From an uncultured Planctomycetales bacterium (GTDB taxonomy: Bacteria > Omnitrophota > Gorgyraeia > Zapsychrales > Fredricksoniimonadaceae), in NCBI GenBank assembly GCA_964583975.1, contig CAZOXU010000001.1, positions 291,552 through 355,551 of the forward strand: DNA of 64,000 bases, in the 5' to 3' direction. The notes under the pieces were generated by a model that searched no databases, had not been told where the DNA came from, and saw nothing but the letters and a program-made list of their open reading frames with translations. The translations under genes were made by a program, and so were the position numbers. Below, in pieces: positions 5,701-40,745 of the stretch (its first letter is position 1; the number at the start of each line of letters is the position of its first letter).

Positions 5701-8196
5701 TTAAATGACAATACTAACAAGCTTCTTGGGGACGACAATAATTTTCTTGATAGTAGCCCCTTCGAGATAGCGGGCCACATTGGCATCTGCCAGGCAGAGT
5801 TTTTTCAGATCTTCATCAGAGGTGCAAACCGATGTCGTAAACTGACCACGAACCTTACCATTGATTTGAACGGCATAGGTGACTTCATCTTGCACCAGGG
5901 CTCGCTCATCAAAGGCGGGCCAGGCGACCTTACTGACGGTCTGATCTTTTTTGCCCATCATCTGCCAAAGCTCTTCGCACAAATGCGGCGTAAATGGGGT
6001 TAACAATAAGACGAGGGTTTCAATGGCTTGATTCAACGTAACCGTTGATTCTTGCTTATACTTATCAACGGCATTTGCCAAGATCATAGCCTGACTAATG
6101 GCTGTATTAAATTTATAACCTTCTTCAAAAGCTTGGGTAATCTGTCGGATAGCTAGATGACGGGCACGCTCTAAGGTTTGATCTGCTCCCTGCTCGGTGG
6201 TTTCTTTCGCATAACGTTTCTCAACCATCAAGTAAACACGGTTTAAAAATCGCCAGGCCCCCTCTAAACCATCACTATTCCATTCGAGCTGATCTTCTGG
6301 CGGAGCAGCAAAAAGAATAAATAAACGTAAAGTATCTGCACCATATCTATTTAAAACTTCATCCGGATCAACTGTGTTGCCCCGAGATTTAGACATCACT
6401 TCTCCATCTTTAAGCACCATCCCCTGGGTTAAAAGACGGACAAACGGTTCATTTAAATCAGTTAGTCCTAAATCTTTGAAGAATTTAGTAAAAAAACGAG
6501 AGTACAACAAATGTAATATAGCATGCTCGATACCACCGATGTATTGATCGACCGCCATCCAATATTTGGCTTCATCCTTATTAAAGACTTCTTGGTTGTT
6601 ATCTGCAGAACAAAACCGTAAGAAATACCAGGAAGAATCAAAGAAGGTGGCCATGGTATCGGTTTCACGGCGGGCTGCTTTAGAACATTTAGGGCACTTC
6701 ACATTAACGAAATCTTCTACACGATTTAAAGGAGAGCCTCCCTGCCCCGTGATTTCCACATTCTTAGGTAATGCTACAGGCAATTGCGCATAAGGAACAG
6801 GAACCACACCGCAAGCCTCGCAATAAATCATGGGAATCGGCGTTCCCCAGTAACGCTGGCGGGAAATCAGCCAATCACGCAAGCGCCAATGAATGGTTGT
6901 TTTACCCATGCGTTCTTGAGCCATCCATTCAGCAATTTTCTTCTTAGCTTCTTCATTATTAAGACCATCAAATTGCTTCGAATTAACCAAAACACCCGCA
7001 TCTTCATAAGCCTTGGTCATATCTTTTAATTCAAAAACCTCTTTAGGGTTTTGAATAACAATTTTCATGGCAAGCTTATGGTTGGTAGCGAATTCAAAAT
7101 CGCGCTGGTCATGGGTGGGTACCGCCATAATGGCGCCAGTCCCATACTCCATCAATACATAGTCCCCAATATAAACCGGAATAGAATCACCATTAACAGG
7201 ATTGATGGCATAACGGCCTGTAAACACGCCTTCCTTACGCTGATCGCCTGACATACGAAGGCTTTTACTTTTATTGGCTGTCTTCTCAATAAAGGTCCCA
7301 ATTTCTTTTTCTTGAGGAGTGCCAGCGACAAGTTTTTTAACCAAAGGATGTTCTGGAGCCAGGACCACATAGGTAGCCCCAAAAATGGTGTCGGGACGGG
7401 TAGTGAAAACCGGAATAATTTCGTCCGTAGGGGCAGGCCCCTGTGCCTGCCCTTCTTGAGGGCGACCACGGGGGGTCGCCCCTACAATTTTAAAATAAAT
7501 CTCTACCCCAAAACTCTTACCAATCCAATTCTCCTGCATAGCTCGCACACGTGAAGGCCAATGCTCGAGCTGCTTTAAGTCTTCCAGTAAGGTTTCAGCG
7601 TAATGAGTAATCTTTAGATACCACTGATCTAAGTCTTTTTGTTCGACATTGTTTTTGCAGCGCCAGCAAGCGCCATCGATAACTTCTTCGTTGGCTAAGG
7701 TTGTCTGACAGCTAGGACACCAATTGACGGAAGAAGCTTTCTTATAGGCAAGCCCACGTTCATACATCTTTAAAAAGATCCACTGATTCCATCGGTAGTA
7801 GTCACTGTCGCAAGTGGCAATTTCACGGTCCCAGTCATAGGCAAAGCCCATTTTCTTGAGTTCTTCTCTCATCTGGTCGATACATTGGTAGGTCCACTGA
7901 CCTGGGTCGGTCTTATGTTTGATAGCCGCATTCTCAGCAGGCTGACCAAAGGCATCGTAGCCCATGGGGTGAAGCACATTAAACCCTTGCATCATTTTGT
8001 AACGGGCCATCACATCGCCGATGGTATAGTTACGCACATGGCCCATATGAATCTTGCCCGAAGGATAGGGAAACATTTCTAAGACATAATACTTCTTCTT
8101 AGAAGCATCCGCTTCGACTTTAAAAGTCTTGCGCTGTTCCCAGAAACGTTGCCATTTTGATTCAATGGATTTGATGTCGTTGGTGGTATAAGGCAT
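5701..8196 (-). CDS. leuS: Leucyl-tRNA synthetase
   Basis: HMGH (PSGKIHMGHVRNY) and KMSKS (VMSKSRGN) class-I motifs; TTRPDT editing-domain motif; bacterial LeuS length. Contains a 59-bp element insertion. Confidence 0.95.
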   Translation of the reverse strand: MPYTTNDIKSIESKWQRFWEQRKTFKVEADASKKKYYVLEMFPYPSGKIHMGHVRNYTIGDVMARYKMMQGFNVLHPMGYDAFGQPAENAAIKHKTDPGQWTYQCIDQMREELKKMGFAYDWDREIATCDSDYYRWNQWIFLKMYERGLAYKKASSVNWCPSCQTTLANEEVIDGACWRCKNNVEQKDLDQWYLKITHYAETLLEDLKQLEHWPSRVRAMQENWIGKSFGVEIYFKIVGATPRGRPQEGQAQGPAPTDEIIPVFTTRPDTIFGATYVVLAPEHPLVKKLVAGTPQEKEIGTFIEKTANKSKSLRMSGDQRKEGVFTGRYAINPVNGDSIPVYIGDYVLMEYGTGAIMAVPTHDQRDFEFATNHKLAMKIVIQNPKEVFELKDMTKAYEDAGVLVNSKQFDGLNNEEAKKKIAEWMAQERMGKTTIHWRLRDWLISRQRYWGTPIPMIYCEACGVVPVPYAQLPVALPKNVEITGQGGSPLNRVEDFVNVKCPKCSKAARRETDTMATFFDSSWYFLRFCSADNNQEVFNKDEAKYWMAVDQYIGGIEHAILHLLYSRFFTKFFKDLGLTDLNEPFVRLLTQGMVLKDGEVMSKSRGNTVDPDEVLNRYGADTLRLFILFAAPPEDQLEWNSDGLEGAWRFLNRVYLMVEKRYAKETTEQGADQTLERARHLAIRQITQAFEEGYKFNTAISQAMILANAVDKYKQESTVTLNQAIETLVLLLTPFTPHLCEELWQMMGKKDQTVSKVAWPAFDERALVQDEVTYAVQINGKVRGQFTTSVCTSDEDLKKLCLADANVARYLEGATIKKIIVVPKKLVSIVI
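7427..7485. repeat. Family II nested-palindrome element, copy A (59 bp), in-frame inside leuS
   Basis: GTAGGGG-CAGGcccctgtgCCTGCC-cttcttga-GGGCGACCacgggGGGTCGCCC-CTAC. Translated as RGRPQEGQAQGPAP immediately before the TTRPDT motif. Confidence 0.9.
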
Positions 8197-36089: not shown

Positions 36090-39000
36090 CTACCCTTTGG
36101 CTAGCTGGGTGTTCTTTTGAAGCTGCGAGAACATGGGCAAAGTGATGGCTGGCCTGATTTCCATGATAACCGGCACCAGACCATCAATATGAATATTTTC
36201 CAAATTCTGCTGACTAATTGGCAGCGGCACACCTGCTCCATCACGCTTGATCTGCAAATTCAAATTTGCTGCGTTAAAGTCGATACCACCCTTTGTCGCC
36301 ATTGCAGAGTCAGAGATTTTATCCGTCACGTATTGCACGATATCGCCAACCGTTCGAAGTGATGCCGTTTTGTCGTTAGGAATTCGAATATTAAAACTAT
36401 CCTCAAGCTCTATCATTAGCACAATGACGTCTTGAGAATCTACACTGAAATCCTTTTGGAGATCATCGGTATCTTTAAATTCAATGTGATCAAGACTTGG
36501 AACTACTTTCTTGATTGCTTCATGTACTTTCTGTCTTACCCCTTCAGATTTGGTTGTCATGGCAGAATCATATAAAGCGTTTATTTGATCTTTAATCGCT
36601 TTAATTTCTTGGTCCAATTTTTGCAATTGATTCCCCAAAACTGTTGGGCTATATGCTCCCCCTTGTTGAGCCCCATATCCCCTTCCCAAAGCCGACACAT
36701 AATCGACGTTAACCTTAACTCTTTGAGCACTCAATTCGCTTTCTTTATTTTGCAATTTCCTTCTATAATCAGTTTTTGAAATTACTTCTATATTCAGCTT
36801 CTCTGCTACGATTGACAATGCCCCTTCTTGAGTAAGAAGCTCTGCTGCGGTAATTCTTTGAAATGCATCATCTGACAAAACAATTGTCGTATTCTCAACG
36901 CCTTCACTTAAATATCTCTCAAATGCAACCATAGGGTCATTGTTCTGGGAAATCTCAAGATCTGCTTTTCCATCTCTAGAAATTTTTAATTTCCCTGAAG
37001 ACCATGAAACACTCGTATGTATTTTATTAAAACCTATCATCCAATAATTAGCATTTTGATAATTATAAAACACATCGACCTCGCCACTTGTTGCTTGTAA
37101 AACGCCTGTCTTCTTACCTGTAAACGCCATTTTTTGCTCTTGTAAACCATTGAAGTCCGGTGCGTTAACTAATTGGTCAAAGGCTTCACGCCATAAAGGA
37201 ATTTTAATCTTTGTAATCGCAATCATCGCTTCATCAACAAACCTAGCCTGGTGATCGTCTTGATCTGGACGACCTATTTCTGCCTGAGCCTGATGAATAG
37301 CAGTATCGAGGCTATCTAATTCTCGCTGCAGGGTCTCAATTTCCATTGCGTGCTGTAATCTGTCAGATTCATTATTCTGAACAGCAGCGGCATTCATTAA
37401 TTTGCGCTCTTGGGCTATTCGATCATTAATCTTACCTTGTTGCTTTAGAAGATTATCTAAACTTGTTTGAGGCAATTCGCCACGCATCGCGGCATCGCCG
37501 CTTCCAGTAGCGTTACTAATCTCTGCCCATGCTGTATTAATTTCTGCTTTTACATTCTCAAGTTCGCGCTTCAATACATCAATTTGTACTCTTAAACGGC
37601 TTATTATTGAAGGATTTGCAACAACATTTACACCCGCTGCTGCTGTATTTTTGGCGTACTCTGCATCTAATTCTCGTTGAAATGAATCAATTTGAGCTTG
37701 AATCGATCTTTGACGCTGTTCTAATTCGCCTTTTTGTTTGGAAGCTGTCAAAAGTTTAGCAGCACCAAGATTGGATTGATTGATACCTGCTTCTAATCGC
37801 GCTTGGGGTGGCAATTCGCCACTCATCGCGGCGTCAGAATCATCACGGCCGTTATCAATTTCTGGCAGTAACGCAAGAATATTGACCTTTATTCTTTCAA
37901 GCTGAATCTGTAATGCAGCAATTTGTGGTCTTAACGAATCGGCTTTAGTACGATCTAACTCTAATTCTTTTTGCAGACTATCGATTTGTGCTTGAAGCTC
38001 GCGTTGTTGCGCTTCTAACTGTCCTTTTCTAACTGAAGGACTGATCTGTAGATCACTTCTATTCGCCATTGCCGCGTCAGCCTTCGCTGTTGTCACTACT
38101 CCTTGACCCTCTTTAATAGGAGAAACTAATTTTGTATCAATGCCCTTGGCCTCAATGGCAGATAAAACAATATTTCTAATGTCAGGATCTATGCTACTAT
38201 CGGTATTGATTAATCCTGCTTTTTGTAGTGTAGCCTTTGGCCCATCATAAATCTTAAAATCTGGACTTCTTGCTAAATCTTCCAAATCAGCTAATGTCAA
38301 TGCGCCTAGAGTTTGATTCAACACTCCTCTTAACTTCTCCATCGTGCTATCCACCACTTCCTTACTTGCTTGCGATCCATTTCTTAAAGTGACTACATCC
38401 ATCGCTGCATCAAAACCTTGTAATAAATTCAATTCCTCTTGCGCCCTTAGCAGGGATTTTTCTGTTTTTCTTAAAGCTGCTTCCAAATCAGTCATTTTTG
38501 CAAACTTATCCTCTGCTCTTGCTATGGCCAACTCACGATTAAGCCCATCAAATTGACCTTCCAACTCTTCAACCTTTTTTTGAGCATCAGCAATAGCTTG
38601 AGAAGATTTTTGAGCCGCCATCGCGGAGTCTCTGCGCAAGATTTCATCCCAAATTCGCTGCATTATTTTCTTATCATTTGTTATTTGCTTGGCAATTCTT
38701 TTTCGTTGACGCGAACTTAAAAGAAAACTATCGACTATTGCGACTCCAATGGCATGATGCGCTGCCCACAAGGAAGATAGATAGATCGTCTGAAGCGCTG
38801 TCTTATAATTCTTACTAACAGCCAAATCAAAAATTTGCAAAGGGCTCATTTTCTTTAAACGGGGCTTAGCCGCCATCGCTGCATCTTTTTTAGTCTTCAT
38901 CGCATCTTTGATAGCACCTAAGGCTTTTACATATTTGAGTTCGGTCAATGTTCTATCAGCAATGCCATCTTCTAAATAGTCTGCTGCTGCTTGAAGTTCA

Positions 39001-40745
39001 TCTGATGTAATTTGATCTGTTGGCTCCTCATTAATAAACTGATCAACAACTACAGATGGGGTGAGCTTTACTACGTCACTTTGTAGCGATTCAACTTTTT
39101 CTTCTAACTTTTTCAGCAATTGATTCAAAACTGCCAATTCTCCAACCAATTTATTGCCTGCGCCTTGAACTCGTCGCAAAGCTCTGACATTTTCTCGATC
39201 CTTCAACATTAATCTTGTTGCACGAATAACTGTCAATATTTGCTGACGCTTTTCAGCATCCCCTATCGCAAGACGCTTCAAATCGATACCACGAAACACA
39301 TTAGAAACCGCAGCAATTCTTGCCAAAATTGATTGAAAAAGGAGAACGTCTTTACCATTTCCGCTGATCGCACCTTCCATACTTGTAATAACACTGTCGA
39401 ATTTTATATTTAACGTTCTGATCAAATCCTCTGAATCTTCTTCAGCCTTTGTCATCGCCGCATCAGCCTCAGACTTCTCTGCTAATACAGCTTCTACAGC
39501 ATCTAACTTTCCCGCCTCGGTAGTCAGGATCGGCGTTGCCATAGCAGAATCGGTTGTTGTGCGCATTACCTTTCCATATTCATTCTTTGTTCCACCTGAA
39601 AAATACTTCCTTGGCACGGGCTGATGGGTGAATCGGTCGGTGTCTTCTTTAATATAGTTAAATACACCCTTCTTATAAGCCTTAATGTATTGCTGATAAA
39701 TGGCTTCATTGTTCTTAGGATCTTGATTAATACCGTTAACCTTGGCTTTGTTAGCATAGATCTTGCTTAATAGAGATTCCTTCAAAGCTCGCTTGTACCA
39801 GGCTGCTAAAATCATGCCGCTATACACCTGACGAAGCATGACAAAGTTCTTGCCTTCATTGACTTCTTTTTCAAGGGCTGGAAGTACTATTTCACGGACG
39901 ATTTGGGAGCCGATTTGATTGGTTTCCGTAGGGGCAGGCCCCTGTGCCTGCCCTTCTTGAGGGCGACCACGGGGGGGCGCCCCTACAGCATTTTTATTCA
40001 TAGCCATGTAATCCTCTTCTAGCATCACCTTCAAATGATTCTTTAACACATACGCTGTATTACCAGATTCATACACCGTGGCATCATCTGGCACAATCCA
40101 TACCTTATTAAAGGTATTAACTGGAATCTCTGTGCTGCCAAATTGCTGCTGAGCTTGGGTATACACCTTATCCCAGAACTTCTTACCTAACTCATCTTCA
40201 GGGTATATTAAAGAAGCAGTGATTTGCTTTAATAGGTAGTCTTGAGCTAATAAATCCCGGCCCATCTCAGTCTTACCAAAGTCTTCTTCTACGATACGGT
40301 TCTTTTCATAGGGTGATAGGTTGACCCATTGATTCTCATCAGGCACGGCTAAAGAAGCCATAAAGTACTTAATTAAATTCTTATAAGCGATTTGTTTATC
40401 TTGATCAGATAGACTTTCATCACCTTTGTAGATGATGAAGTCGAATTTAAGAGGATTTTCAGGATGAATAACTAAACCTTTAAGATGTGCAGGGGTGAAT
40501 TCAGGGCTTAGAGCAACTCTGACTCCTGGACTTGGCATCCATGGCATCGAACCAGCAGCCACTTGAGAATAAGCAGGCCGTTGAATGGAAGTACTAAGAA
40601 AAGTCACTAAAATGGTGATAGAAATAAACTTACGAATGGTCATAAAAACCCTTCTTCCTGAGGTATAAATAGTAAATTTGGGGTCAAAAATTCTACACTT
40701 CTTGAAATATGCGGCAAGTATGCCATGGGAAAAGCGCTTTGTCAA
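36090..40745 (-). CDS. Giant secreted modular protein (probable start 40642, ~1517 aa) with coiled-coil repeats, recurrent D-[SA]-A-M-x motif, and a C-terminal acyl-carrier-protein-like domain
   Basis: Long single ORF. Signal peptide follows the internal Met (MTIRKFISITILVTFLSTSIQRPAYS), which is preceded by AGGAAG. Carries a palindromic-element insertion at 39928-39986. The ACP-like segment is FSVDSQDVIVLMIELEDSFNIRIPNDKTASLRTVGDIVQYV. Confidence 0.7.
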   Translation of the reverse strand: MTKRFSHGILAAYFKKCRIFDPKFTIYTSGRRVFMTIRKFISITILVTFLSTSIQRPAYSQVAAGSMPWMPSPGVRVALSPEFTPAHLKGLVIHPENPLKFDFIIYKGDESLSDQDKQIAYKNLIKYFMASLAVPDENQWVNLSPYEKNRIVEEDFGKTEMGRDLLAQDYLLKQITASLIYPEDELGKKFWDKVYTQAQQQFGSTEIPVNTFNKVWIVPDDATVYESGNTAYVLKNHLKVMLEEDYMAMNKNAVGAPPRGRPQEGQAQGPAPTETNQIGSQIVREIVLPALEKEVNEGKNFVMLRQVYSGMILAAWYKRALKESLLSKIYANKAKVNGINQDPKNNEAIYQQYIKAYKKGVFNYIKEDTDRFTHQPVPRKYFSGGTKNEYGKVMRTTTDSAMATPILTTEAGKLDAVEAVLAEKSEADAAMTKAEEDSEDLIRTLNIKFDSVITSMEGAISGNGKDVLLFQSILARIAAVSNVFRGIDLKRLAIGDAEKRQQILTVIRATRLMLKDRENVRALRRVQGAGNKLVGELAVLNQLLKKLEEKVESLQSDVVKLTPSVVVDQFINEEPTDQITSDELQAAADYLEDGIADRTLTELKYVKALGAIKDAMKTKKDAAMAAKPRLKKMSPLQIFDLAVSKNYKTALQTIYLSSLWAAHHAIGVAIVDSFLLSSRQRKRIAKQITNDKKIMQRIWDEILRRDSAMAAQKSSQAIADAQKKVEELEGQFDGLNRELAIARAEDKFAKMTDLEAALRKTEKSLLRAQEELNLLQGFDAAMDVVTLRNGSQASKEVVDSTMEKLRGVLNQTLGALTLADLEDLARSPDFKIYDGPKATLQKAGLINTDSSIDPDIRNIVLSAIEAKGIDTKLVSPIKEGQGVVTTAKADAAMANRSDLQISPSVRKGQLEAQQRELQAQIDSLQKELELDRTKADSLRPQIAALQIQLERIKVNILALLPEIDNGRDDSDAAMSGELPPQARLEAGINQSNLGAAKLLTASKQKGELEQRQRSIQAQIDSFQRELDAEYAKNTAAAGVNVVANPSIISRLRVQIDVLKRELENVKAEINTAWAEISNATGSGDAAMRGELPQTSLDNLLKQQGKINDRIAQERKLMNAAAVQNNESDRLQHAMEIETLQRELDSLDTAIHQAQAEIGRPDQDDHQARFVDEAMIAITKIKIPLWREAFDQLVNAPDFNGLQEQKMAFTGKKTGVLQATSGEVDVFYNYQNANYWMIGFNKIHTSVSWSSGKLKISRDGKADLEISQNNDPMVAFERYLSEGVENTTIVLSDDAFQRITAAELLTQEGALSIVAEKLNIEVISKTDYRRKLQNKESELSAQRVKVNVDYVSALGRGYGAQQGGAYSPTVLGNQLQKLDQEIKAIKDQINALYDSAMTTKSEGVRQKVHEAIKKVVPSLDHIEFKDTDDLQKDFSVDSQDVIVLMIELEDSFNIRIPNDKTASLRTVGDIVQYVTDKISDSAMATKGGIDFNAANLNLQIKRDGAGVPLPISQQNLENIHIDGLVPVIMEIRPAITLPMFSQLQKNTQLAKG
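39928..39986. repeat. Family II nested-palindrome element, copy B (59 bp), in-frame inside the giant ORF
   Basis: Nearly identical to copy A (differs by about 2 nt, in the second hairpin). Encodes PPRGRPQEGQAQGPAPT. Confidence 0.9.

Follow-up and report, generated by a model that had tools for sequence, protein, structure and literature searches.

An exported Omnitrophota protein family with a recurring junction motif

The 64-kb stretch of Omnitrophota DNA analysed here (the window) contains a gene whose product is Sec-exported and belongs to a very large family of paralogs specific to Omnitrophota. The invariant chassis of the family, made up of a conserved N-terminal domain (N-domain), a short conserved strand and a conserved C-terminal domain, surrounds an exchangeable cargo array. 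A short motif marks the junctions: in the window protein every one of them, those from chassis to cargo and from cargo to chassis included, has a flexible linker that carries [D>N]-x-A-[M>Q]-[T/A/S]. We found that purifying selection acts on this motif and that its fixed positions show an enzyme-like specificity, with Glu, Leu/Ile/Val and Gly/Ser not tolerated.

The mechanical ORF spans 36090–40745 on the minus strand, a strand that the earlier note on this DNA did not mention, and holds 1551 aa counted from a TTG. The CDS most likely runs from 36090 to 40643 (1517 aa plus stop), starting at the ATG at 40643, because the TTG at 40745 opens the first hexamer of a promoter-like site, a Shine-Dalgarno-like stretch (AGGAAGAAGG) lies upstream of the ATG, and the database copy P0001, 100% identical, is 1517 aa long. 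The promoter-like site, a sigma-70-like match to the consensus only (TTGACA-17-CATACT with TG; 40717–40745, minus strand), is placed between hflX and the gene for the modular protein.

Conserved ends of the family

The signal peptide reported earlier is borne out by a Sec-like N-terminus, in which RK is followed by 15 hydrophobic residues and AYS-Q (family consensus ...PAYA-Q); the predicted Sec-type peptide covers aa 35–60 (MTIRKFISITILVTFLSTSIQRPAYS-Q; 40566–40643, minus strand), a segment that is a helix in the AF2 model. Directly after it lies the family N-domain (aa 61–385, ~325 aa; 39591–40565, minus strand), delimited by comparison with >100 homologs, to which it is 55–90% identical. 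About 90 columns are invariant in the family, all of them present in the window protein, and the domain carries the signatures QWVNLSPYE, FGxTEMGRDLLxQDYxLKQ, TFNKVWIVP and RKYFSGG; the domain has no invariant Cys. The invariant QWVNLSPYE loop is modelled poorly when the N-domain is modelled alone. Beyond the N-domain, a mini-module (module 1, aa 402–430; 39456–39542, minus strand) contains the conserved post-N-domain strand of the family, with consensus D-hydrophobic-A-x-V (column counts D92, A70 and V57 of 100 in the family alignment); the equivalent strand in the model of the family member P0050 has a pLDDT of about 90.

At the other end, homolog comparison defined a C-terminal domain at aa 1486–1551 (GGIDFNAANLNLQIKRDG.GVPLP...GLVPVIMEIRPA..LPMFSQLQ; 36093–36290, minus strand). 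Its ~65-aa consensus is GGIDxN...G[LF]xPxIxxIxP (also written GGIDxN…GLxPVIxxIxP), and 117 of 120 homologs have it, as do 2005 clusters at 50% identity; its place, here too, is always the extreme C-terminus. In the full-length model of P0050, the GLxPVIxxI strand of this domain and the post-N-domain strand stand isolated between low-confidence linkers, with pLDDT 84–90.

Sequence and profile searches found no relative of the N-domain or the C-terminal domain in Pfam, NCBIfam or PDB, the PDB profile searches giving either nothing or coiled-coil noise from variable columns; the last 70 aa matched no Pfam or NCBIfam model even at E<=10, T9SS C-terminal-domain models included. Foldseek against PDB with both AF2 models, which are of moderate quality only (pLDDT 62–65), gave nothing below E 0.5. 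A literature search likewise returned no description of the family or the motif, which agrees with the earlier statement that no described family matches this architecture. The paralog family, the N-domain and the C-terminal domain had been missed at that stage.

The family comprises >4500 clusters at 90% identity, single MAGs having 8 copies or more, and its members share one layout: Sec-type signal peptide, conserved N-domain, hypervariable middle and conserved C-terminal domain. The closest relative, P0002, is 90% identical to the window protein up to the second DAAM, has an unrelated middle, and is 84% identical again from the C-terminal domain, right after the last motif site. The order miaA-hflX-gene-bamD-lptE is not kept in other genomes; single-domain response regulators are frequent near the family (15 of 80 loci). 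In searches of the whole protein against Pfam, NCBIfam, PADLOC and PHROGs, one acyl-carrier-protein (ACP) module gave the only match. A viral origin, or a role as a phage or defence protein, was rejected: PADLOC models had no match, PHROGs hit the ACP module only, and viral contigs hold only 3 family loci in 2.9 million.

A four-residue motif at the module junctions

The earlier note had described a recurring D-[SA]-A-M motif. The window protein contains 10 D[SA]AM sites, where composition-preserving shuffles (n=20,000) average 0.042 and never exceed 2, and none occur in other frames of the window. An additional DEAM raises the count to 11 D.AM sites, where about 0.3 are expected (family median 3, maximum 14); the 50 other ORFs of the window (19,006 aa) have none, with 1.9 expected. 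Across the variable regions of 161 family members (127,580 aa), D.AM ranks top of all 3-residue gapped patterns, with 418 observed and 15.9 expected. A compositional artefact was rejected on the strength of the shuffles and this ranking. Of the two checks proposed with the original description, that on composition, now run, indicates that Ala/Asp richness does not explain the motif frequency in the shuffles or in the 161 members, and that on homologs found the motif at their junctions.

The 161 members refine the motif to [D>N>S]-x-A-[M>Q]-[T/A/S]; the general form [D/N]-x-A-[M/Q] is broader than the D-[SA]-A-M originally described. At position 1, D is enriched 26-fold, N 8-fold and S 3-fold, with E at 1.2-fold and Q at 1-fold; position 3 accepts A only (G 0.6-fold, S 1.4-fold); and at position 4 M is enriched 26-fold and Q 4-fold, with L, I, V and F below 1-fold. 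A small residue (T/A/S) directly follows, beyond which the flanks of the motif show no conservation. Motif density is 1.78 per 1000 aa in family ORFs versus 0.17 in 736 neighbouring ORFs, and 13 of the 161 members lack the motif altogether. Sites are spaced by a median of 147 aa, and short tandem doublets occur too. Ahead of the C-terminal domain, a D/N-x-A element is found in ~90% of 100 aligned members (D78/N14, A90 and M58 of 100).

That the constraint acts on the protein, as had been proposed from varying codons, holds up. Codons differ between the sites of the window protein, and it is the protein, not the DNA, that is constrained, because codons match the background (GAT makes up 0.70 of Asp codons at sites versus 0.71). 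Glu, whose codons are set apart from those of Asp by the wobble base only, shows no enrichment at the first position. Between modules that are at most 90% identical, 47 of 78 internal sites are kept, with 6.4 expected, while the flanks diverge. No SD-like signal lies upstream of the sites. A DNA-level recombination site and an internal ribosome-binding site were both rejected, codons and upstream bases being like the background.

In position, the sites lie 5–10 aa beyond the edges of compact Pfam domains, as seen with two Response_reg domains, LysM and ACP, and in P0050 both sites lie in segments with pLDDT<50. Starts of homology blocks lie within 10 aa of a site in 43% of cases, versus 13% for random positions. 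In the window protein, all on the minus strand, motif 1 (DSAM, aa 399–402; 39540–39551) comes right after the N-domain and is conserved in P0002 and P0003, and motif 2 (DAAM, aa 428–431; 39453–39464) is where the homology to P0002 stops. Motif 3 (DAAM, aa 621–624; 38874–38885) and motif 4 (DSAM, aa 706–709; 38619–38630) are followed by motif 5 (DAAM, aa 779–782; 38400–38411), at the start of a module (module 5) that is common to P0004 and P0027 and begins at their own D.AM sites. Next come three further DAAM sites, motif 6 (aa 890–893; 38067–38078), motif 7 (aa 971–974; 37824–37835) and motif 8 (aa 1084–1087; 37485–37496), and then the general D-x-A-M form, motif 9 (DEAM, aa 1171–1174; 37224–37235). 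Motif 10 (DSAM, aa 1393–1396; 36558–36569) is 10 aa ahead of the ACP domain and motif 11 (DSAM, aa 1479–1482; 36300–36311) 4 aa ahead of the C-terminal domain.

Cargo of the window protein

The variable cargo array (aa 431–1478; 36312–39455, minus strand) consists of nine motif-delimited modules of 73–222 aa, mostly orphan helical or coiled-coil units together with one acyl carrier protein. A word-indexed search with aa 431–1395 returned the self-match and no other homolog; a search with module 9 alone found no relatives, a weak negative, since it missed even the window protein itself. Pfam searches of six motif-rich homologs matched almost nothing, most of their cargo being orphan sequence.

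Modules 6–8 (aa 893–1173; 37227–38069, minus strand) are related and coiled-coil-like by module comparison and heptad scan. Modules 6 and 7 share 36% identity (E 1e-13), and modules 7 and 8 match only weakly (E 0.002). Of the tandem ~113-aa repeats described earlier, the relatedness of adjacent modules stands; the modules are diverged, with lengths of 81, 113 and 87 aa. Tandem Repeats Finder detected no DNA array, and a tandem DNA repeat array was rejected accordingly. The reported short DNA repeat is present as two 26-nt copies with 92% identity and a spacing of 339 (repeat family D7), one at 37471–37496 encoding DAAM-R-GELP and the other at 37810–37835 encoding DAAM-S-GELP. The evidence for coiled coils consists of a crude scan for heptads and an SMC match far below threshold (SMC_prok_B, 17 bits versus a cutoff of 567), no defined coiled-coil family scoring above its cutoff.

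The ACP module (module 10, aa 1396–1481; 36303–36560, minus strand), identified through Pfam and PHROGs, had been missed by the earlier note. It matches Pfam PF00550 (PP-binding) over the full domain length at aa 1406–1473, with 25.1 bits against a cutoff of 20.8, and keeps the serine of DSxD as the predicted phosphopantetheine-attachment residue, Ser 1437 within VDSQD (codon 36435–36437). NCBIfam ACP models all scored below their cutoffs (the canonical AcpP equivalogs TIGR00517 and PRK00982 at 40–45 bits versus 66–70). What sets the module apart from known acyl carrier proteins is that it forms part of an exported protein of many modules and that no partner synthase is encoded near the gene.

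Cleavage site or another kind of junction signal

We tentatively favour the reading that a sequence-specific peptidase recognises the motif between modules, the exported cargo carrier being processed in the style of a polyprotein. Here we infer the cutting itself, the protease and what becomes of the modules: a sequence-specific endopeptidase would cut the exported precursor between modules, in a polyprotein- or MARTX-like manner, so that individual cargo units would be released or exposed, and the N- and C-terminal pieces would serve export or anchoring. Several observations stand against cleavage. The 80 family loci have no consistently linked gene, no conserved neighbour and no linked protease, and the literature contains no proteomic or experimental evidence of cutting. 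As given above, 13 of 161 members are motif-free, and Met occupies the site before the C-terminal domain in only 58%. Cytoplasm-type cargo behind a Sec signal (ACP, receiver, PP2C, J domains and methyltransferases) is left without explanation. Finally, the related conserved segment D-hydrophobic-A-x-V comes out of the model as a confident beta-strand (pLDDT about 90), not as a free linker, so that docking fits as well as cutting.

The main rival, which we consider rather unlikely, is a non-cleaved docking motif, in which the short linear motif [DN]xA[MQ] would bind a partner by beta-strand addition. This partner could be the family N-domain, acting in cis or in trans, or else a factor for export or assembly, and docking would hold the modules together or in order, or build a surface coat from polymerised family members. 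It explains the specificity, the linker position, the tandem doublets and the restriction to the family as well as cleavage does. The isolated strands of P0050 also suggest packing onto the N-domain sheet, and the poor QWVNLSPYE loop in the lone N-domain model looks as though a ligand were absent, but this packing is read from pLDDT alone. Moreover, the internal motif differs from the docked strand, because D.A[TV] is not enriched in family variable regions and only M and Q are, and to be placed at each domain boundary is rather what one expects of processing sites.

It is quite unlikely that the motif is a passive linker or evolutionary scar, left as modules spread, through duplication and shuffling, with a common linker piece, with DxAM simply inherited or capping a helix N-terminus and no recognition involved. 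Modules 7 and 8 were duplicated along with their junction (the 26-nt repeat, 92%), modules 6–8 are related, and the order D>N>S is reminiscent of helix N-cap propensities. However, the motif is found at junctions of unrelated modules without flanking similarity, its synonymous codons are randomised, conservation at its sites exceeds the surrounding identity about 7-fold, and capping fails to explain the strict Ala and Met/Q. The interchangeability of D and N with exclusion of E and Q, typical of Asp/Asn-specific chemistries, would also suit a post-translational modification or cross-link (an Asp/Asn isopeptide, ester or hydroxylation, or one at Met) marking each linker, in which the sites appear exposed in the models. 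We regard this as improbable, for neither the protein nor its neighbourhood encodes a modifying enzyme or catalytic partner domain, and we know of no precedent for modification at such a sequence. Scarcely credible, lastly, are relic or active internal start codons, whereby modules would be captured whole ORFs with a surviving ATG and possibly internal initiation. Met does sit where a native N-terminus is expected, 5–10 aa before the first strand of the receiver and likewise for ACP and LysM, but Gln, which has no start codon, replaces it at 4-fold enrichment, the constraint on D and A acts on the protein, E is excluded despite a wobble-only difference, and no Shine-Dalgarno-like signal precedes the sites.

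Comparison with known modular systems

The putative peptidase sites find a close parallel in MARTX toxins of Vibrio and relatives, which likewise place a strain-variable array of unrelated effector modules between conserved termini, an architecture present in the window protein. In MARTX, the modules are released at a short, context-free site in the unstructured linkers between them, and close relatives swap whole arrays, as they do here. The window protein differs in lacking RTX or glycine-rich repeats (Pfam and NCBIfam, E<=1) and a C80 cysteine protease domain (Peptidase C80, Pfam/NCBIfam), in having a Sec signal instead of a type I secretion signal, and in its site, [DN]xA[MQ] as opposed to Leu-(A/S/G); it is also far smaller, has many paralogs per genome and belongs to another phylum, and its cleavage is putative. 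Gingipain/HagA polyproteins (Porphyromonas, type IX) share a signal peptide, modules and a conserved ~70–80-aa C-terminal domain, and their modules are processed at a simple recurring site, as the motif here may be. The C-terminal domain here, however, fits no type IX or other model; the polyproteins have no counterpart of the conserved N-domain, are processed at Arg or Lys, and contain their own protease.

The polymorphic effector and toxin proteins PE/PPE, Rhs and CdiA also form large paralog families: their trafficking ends are conserved, their cargo is hypervariable and in many cases orphan, and homology breaks off sharply. But their variable part is terminal, whereas here it is sandwiched between two conserved ends; they have no recurring junction tetrapeptide and no sequence relationship to the window protein. 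Precursors of multi-core RiPPs (cyanobactin PatE, cyclotides) repeat short recognition sequences beside each cassette, with Asn or Asp as the key residue for the processing enzyme in cyclotides. Their cassettes, though, are peptides of 6–40 aa as against folded domains of 70–220 aa here, and their processing enzymes are known and encoded nearby.

Implications for Omnitrophota biology

Omnitrophota are widespread, uncultured and probably predatory or host-dependent nanobacteria whose cell biology is almost unknown. The modular family is among the most expanded in this phylum, with thousands of members and at least 8 copies in single genomes, and its conserved ends with largely orphan middles follow a pattern typical of interaction-interface molecules. 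We think it unlikely, on balance, that the more far-reaching scheme holds in full. In it, the N-domain and C-terminal domain would be a phylum-specific, structurally new cargo chassis, the C-terminal and D-x-A-x-V strands clamping the N-domain, that exports dozens of interchangeable arrays per genome, possibly effectors against prey or host; [DN]xA[MQ] would be the grammar for a dedicated peptidase or a binding site, possibly the N-domain, and might extend to giant proteins.

The four-residue signal, strict and easy to search for, shows where to divide these proteins into functional units whose structures can then be predicted, and it provides a concrete proteomics hypothesis (neo-termini at DxAM) and a handle on the enzyme or receptor that reads the motif. 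The cleavage points of giant Omnitrophota proteins are reportedly unknown to the authors of the preprint on giant genes; if the same signal operates in those proteins, it would address where, if anywhere, the giants are cut.

Gene structure and internal sites of the giant protein

The giant protein is encoded by a single minus-strand ORF (36090..40745), 1551 aa when counted from TTG 40745, the numbering used here. This TTG lies in the first hexamer of a promoter-like consensus match (TTGACA-17-CATACT), an SD-like AGGAAGAAGG stands just upstream of ATG 40643, and P0001, its identical counterpart in the database, has 1517 aa. The most likely CDS is therefore 36090..40643 (-), and the opening 34 codons of the ORF as listed (window 40643-40745) are probably untranslated. 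The gene has housekeeping neighbours (miaA-hflX-gene-bamD-lptE-holA), a context not conserved in the other genomes compared. Of the 51 window ORFs with a length of 150 aa or more, 46 lie on the minus strand. GC skew stays negative across the entire window (1-64000), and the pattern is consistent with one replichore whose genes strongly favour one strand.

The protein contains D[SA]AM ten times and DEAM once, with codons differing from site to site, bearing out the recurrence at about ten boundaries that had been noticed earlier. Composition leaves this frequency unexplained, as 20,000 shuffles of the protein's own residues gave a mean of 0.042 D[SA]AM and a maximum of 2. There was no D[SA]AM outside the giant protein in all six frames of the window, and no D.AM in its 50 other ORFs (19,006 aa; 1.9 expected). 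The eleven sites divide the protein into an N-domain, a 29-aa piece carrying a conserved strand, nine cargo modules (73-222 aa each) and a C-terminal domain. An acyl carrier protein domain (aa 1406-1473) is the sole occupant of the module between sites 1393 and 1479.

The DNA repeat of period ~339 reported earlier was recovered as 26 nt at 37471 and 37810 (92% identity, spacing 339) and is part of a local module duplication. The tandem ~113-aa repeats described with it are diverged adjacent modules: modules 6 and 7 are 36% identical (E 1e-13), and modules 7 and 8 match only weakly. Tandem Repeats Finder detected no DNA tandem array. Within module 9, a 25-nt unit occurs as two tandem copies in coding sequence (window 36748-36797, 84% match).

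Conserved ends and hypervariable cargo in an Omnitrophota family

A homolog search with the window protein, in which at most 8000 candidates were scored, returned more than 4500 proteins, a minimum; the named homologs are Candidatus Omnitrophota. Similarity between homologs and query is confined to the opening ~25% of the latter and to a C-terminal domain of ~65 aa, two ends that we call the chassis, as opposed to the variable middle, or cargo. The C-terminal domain opens with GGID[FLM]N, which in 117 of the 120 top matches lies 60-70 aa before the end; a complete HMMER scan for the final 73 aa yielded 2005 clusters (50% identity), at the extreme C-terminus in every case. Species-representative genomes contain at least 587 family loci, with eight or more copies in single MAGs such as JBGAJA01 and CAZACW01, and 2.9 million viral contigs contain only three. 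A number of records bear the label "uncultured Planctomycetales", and one locus (L046) is filed as "Candidatus Elulimicrobium sp." (Patescibacteria group); these labels probably reflect taxonomic error or bin contamination, not real spread beyond Omnitrophota.

The signal peptide noted earlier is a classical Sec signal, consisting of RK, a 15-residue hydrophobic core and AYS-Q (family consensus AYA-Q). About 90 positions of the N-domain (aa 61-385) are invariant. Neither this domain nor the C-terminal domain matched anything in Pfam, NCBIfam, PADLOC, PDB sequences or, by Foldseek, the PDB, and the searchable literature yielded no description of family or motif. Both conserved folds, and the family itself, are undescribed, in agreement with the earlier note; they belong to a type already known, that of modular exported carriers or polyproteins. 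Modelled alone with AF2, the N-domain adopts a helices-plus-hairpins fold (pLDDT 64.8) in which the invariant QWVNLSPYE loop is ill-defined. In the full-length model of a homolog, P0050 (862 aa, pLDDT 61.7), the N-domain core reaches 80-94, and two isolated strands are confident, D-hydrophobic-A-x-V ~30 aa past the N-domain (about 90) and GLxPVIxxI of the C-terminal domain (84-87). From this model we infer packing of the two strands against the N-domain, which would join the conserved ends into a single unit.

Across members, the middle includes Response_reg, cNMP-binding, LysM, LMW phosphatase, PP2C, DnaJ, methyltransferase, TPR, beta-propeller, M3 peptidase and dehydrogenase domains, and most middles have no recognisable domain. 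BLAST among 161 variable regions gave only 136 HSPs. The acyl carrier protein, its attachment serine kept, is the sole recognisable cargo of the window protein, and the homolog search found no relatives of aa 431-1395 besides itself. A word-indexed search with the 222-aa module 9 (window 36561-37226) missed the identical P0001, which the 965-aa query retrieved, and negatives from short sub-queries with this search are therefore unreliable. A 1787-aa member at L076 9847-15210 (continuing L006 1-2454) carries a variant of the C-terminal domain, GGIDL...FKFNIDPAMLKQLQNAPGFYPIIMNI, with an internal DPAM. Long protein repeats in tandem make up its cargo; they form two sets, each bounded by DQAM. 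Receiver domains are common as cargo, and the only recurrent neighbours in the flanks of 80 loci are stand-alone single-domain response-regulator genes (as raw counts, 19 genes at 15 loci and a second cluster at 10).

A palindromic element, rich in GC and about 60-69 nt long, GTAGGGGCG.CCCCCCGTGGTCGCCCTCAAGAAGGGCAGGCACAGGGGCCTGCCCCTAC, occurs in frame twice in the window and folds as one hairpin (-40.2 kcal/mol, z -4.1). One copy (39915-39983, -) encodes a loop of the N-domain, aa 255-277 GAPPRGRPQEGQAQGPAPTETNQ; a nearly identical copy (~7415-7480, -) is found within the gene for leucyl-tRNA synthetase (ORF 5701..8196), ...VGATPRGRPQEGQAQGPAPTDE... A divergent paralog in another MAG has an about 85% identical copy at the equivalent N-domain position (L076 10642-10741), and at least 120 metagenome stretches contain the 20-nt core, which is present in each of the three frames and both within and outside ORFs. 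The palindrome resembles mobile elements of the REP or RPE type and seems to tolerate in-frame insertion.

A strictly specified motif at module junctions

The periodicity search proposed earlier was run on 119 homologs, which contain 147 D[SA]AM against 2.3 expected, never inside the N-domain and with a peak directly after it. When every gapped pattern of three residues was counted without bias across the variable regions (127,580 aa), D.AM ranked first (418 against 15.9 expected), the remaining top patterns all being its derivatives. Position 1 is enriched for D (26x), N (8x) and S (3x), with E at 1.2x and Q at 1x; position 3 is exclusively Ala; position 4 is enriched for M (26x) and Q (4x), with L, I, V and F below 1x. 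Ala is favoured at x and T, A or S follows the motif, beyond which the flanks in the variable regions are not conserved. The motif accounts for 17% of Met in these regions, at a median spacing of 147 aa, and its density is 1.78 per 1000 aa in family ORFs against 0.17 in 736 neighbouring ORFs. Asp codons at sites match background usage, no SD-like signal lies upstream, and Glu is excluded although its codons and those of Asp differ at the wobble base alone, which places the constraint at the protein level, as first proposed.

Sites also coincide with module boundaries. A site lies within ten residues of 43% of the starts and 37% of the ends of HSPs (13% for random positions), and in homologs sites 5-8 aa away bracket compact Pfam domains. 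The closest relative, P0002, is 90% identical to the window protein up to the second DAAM, then unrelated over the entire cargo array, with 84% identity resuming at the C-terminal domain just past the last site. Module 5 recurs in two homologs, P0004 and P0027, each copy opening at its own D.AM. Among homologous modules at most 90% identical, 47 of 78 internal sites are conserved (6.4 expected), and a 100-member alignment reads D78/N14, x, A90, M58 right before the C-terminal domain. Both sites of P0050 fall within segments of pLDDT below 50.

Possible roles of the motif

The motif is strictly specified at three positions, lies in linkers and marks each junction, the two chassis boundaries among them; it also occurs as redundant doublets, is under strong selection and is restricted to the family. 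These properties fit a site that is read by a protein. Our tentative preference is for a sequence-specific peptidase, which would process the exported precursor at the borders of its modules; neither a linked protease nor any other conserved neighbour gene was found at the 80 loci. The main rival, possible if rather unlikely, is a docking motif that is not cleaved, for which the isolated strands of the P0050 model speak. A passive scar of linker joining is improbable and a modification site slightly more so, while descent of the motif from relic start codons is very remote; all three fit less well. Met can be replaced by Gln, Glu is not tolerated, and the sites have no ribosome-binding sequence.

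If the peptidase reading holds, the architecture would work like that of MARTX toxins and gingipain-type polyproteins, but the protein failed the membership tests for those families on domain hallmarks, with no glycine-rich RTX repeats, C80 cysteine protease or type IX sorting domain. A preprint on giant genes of Omnitrophota states that information on cleavage points is lacking. The motif and the family are solid and lead to predictions that can be tested directly, and the function that we propose for them is inferred.
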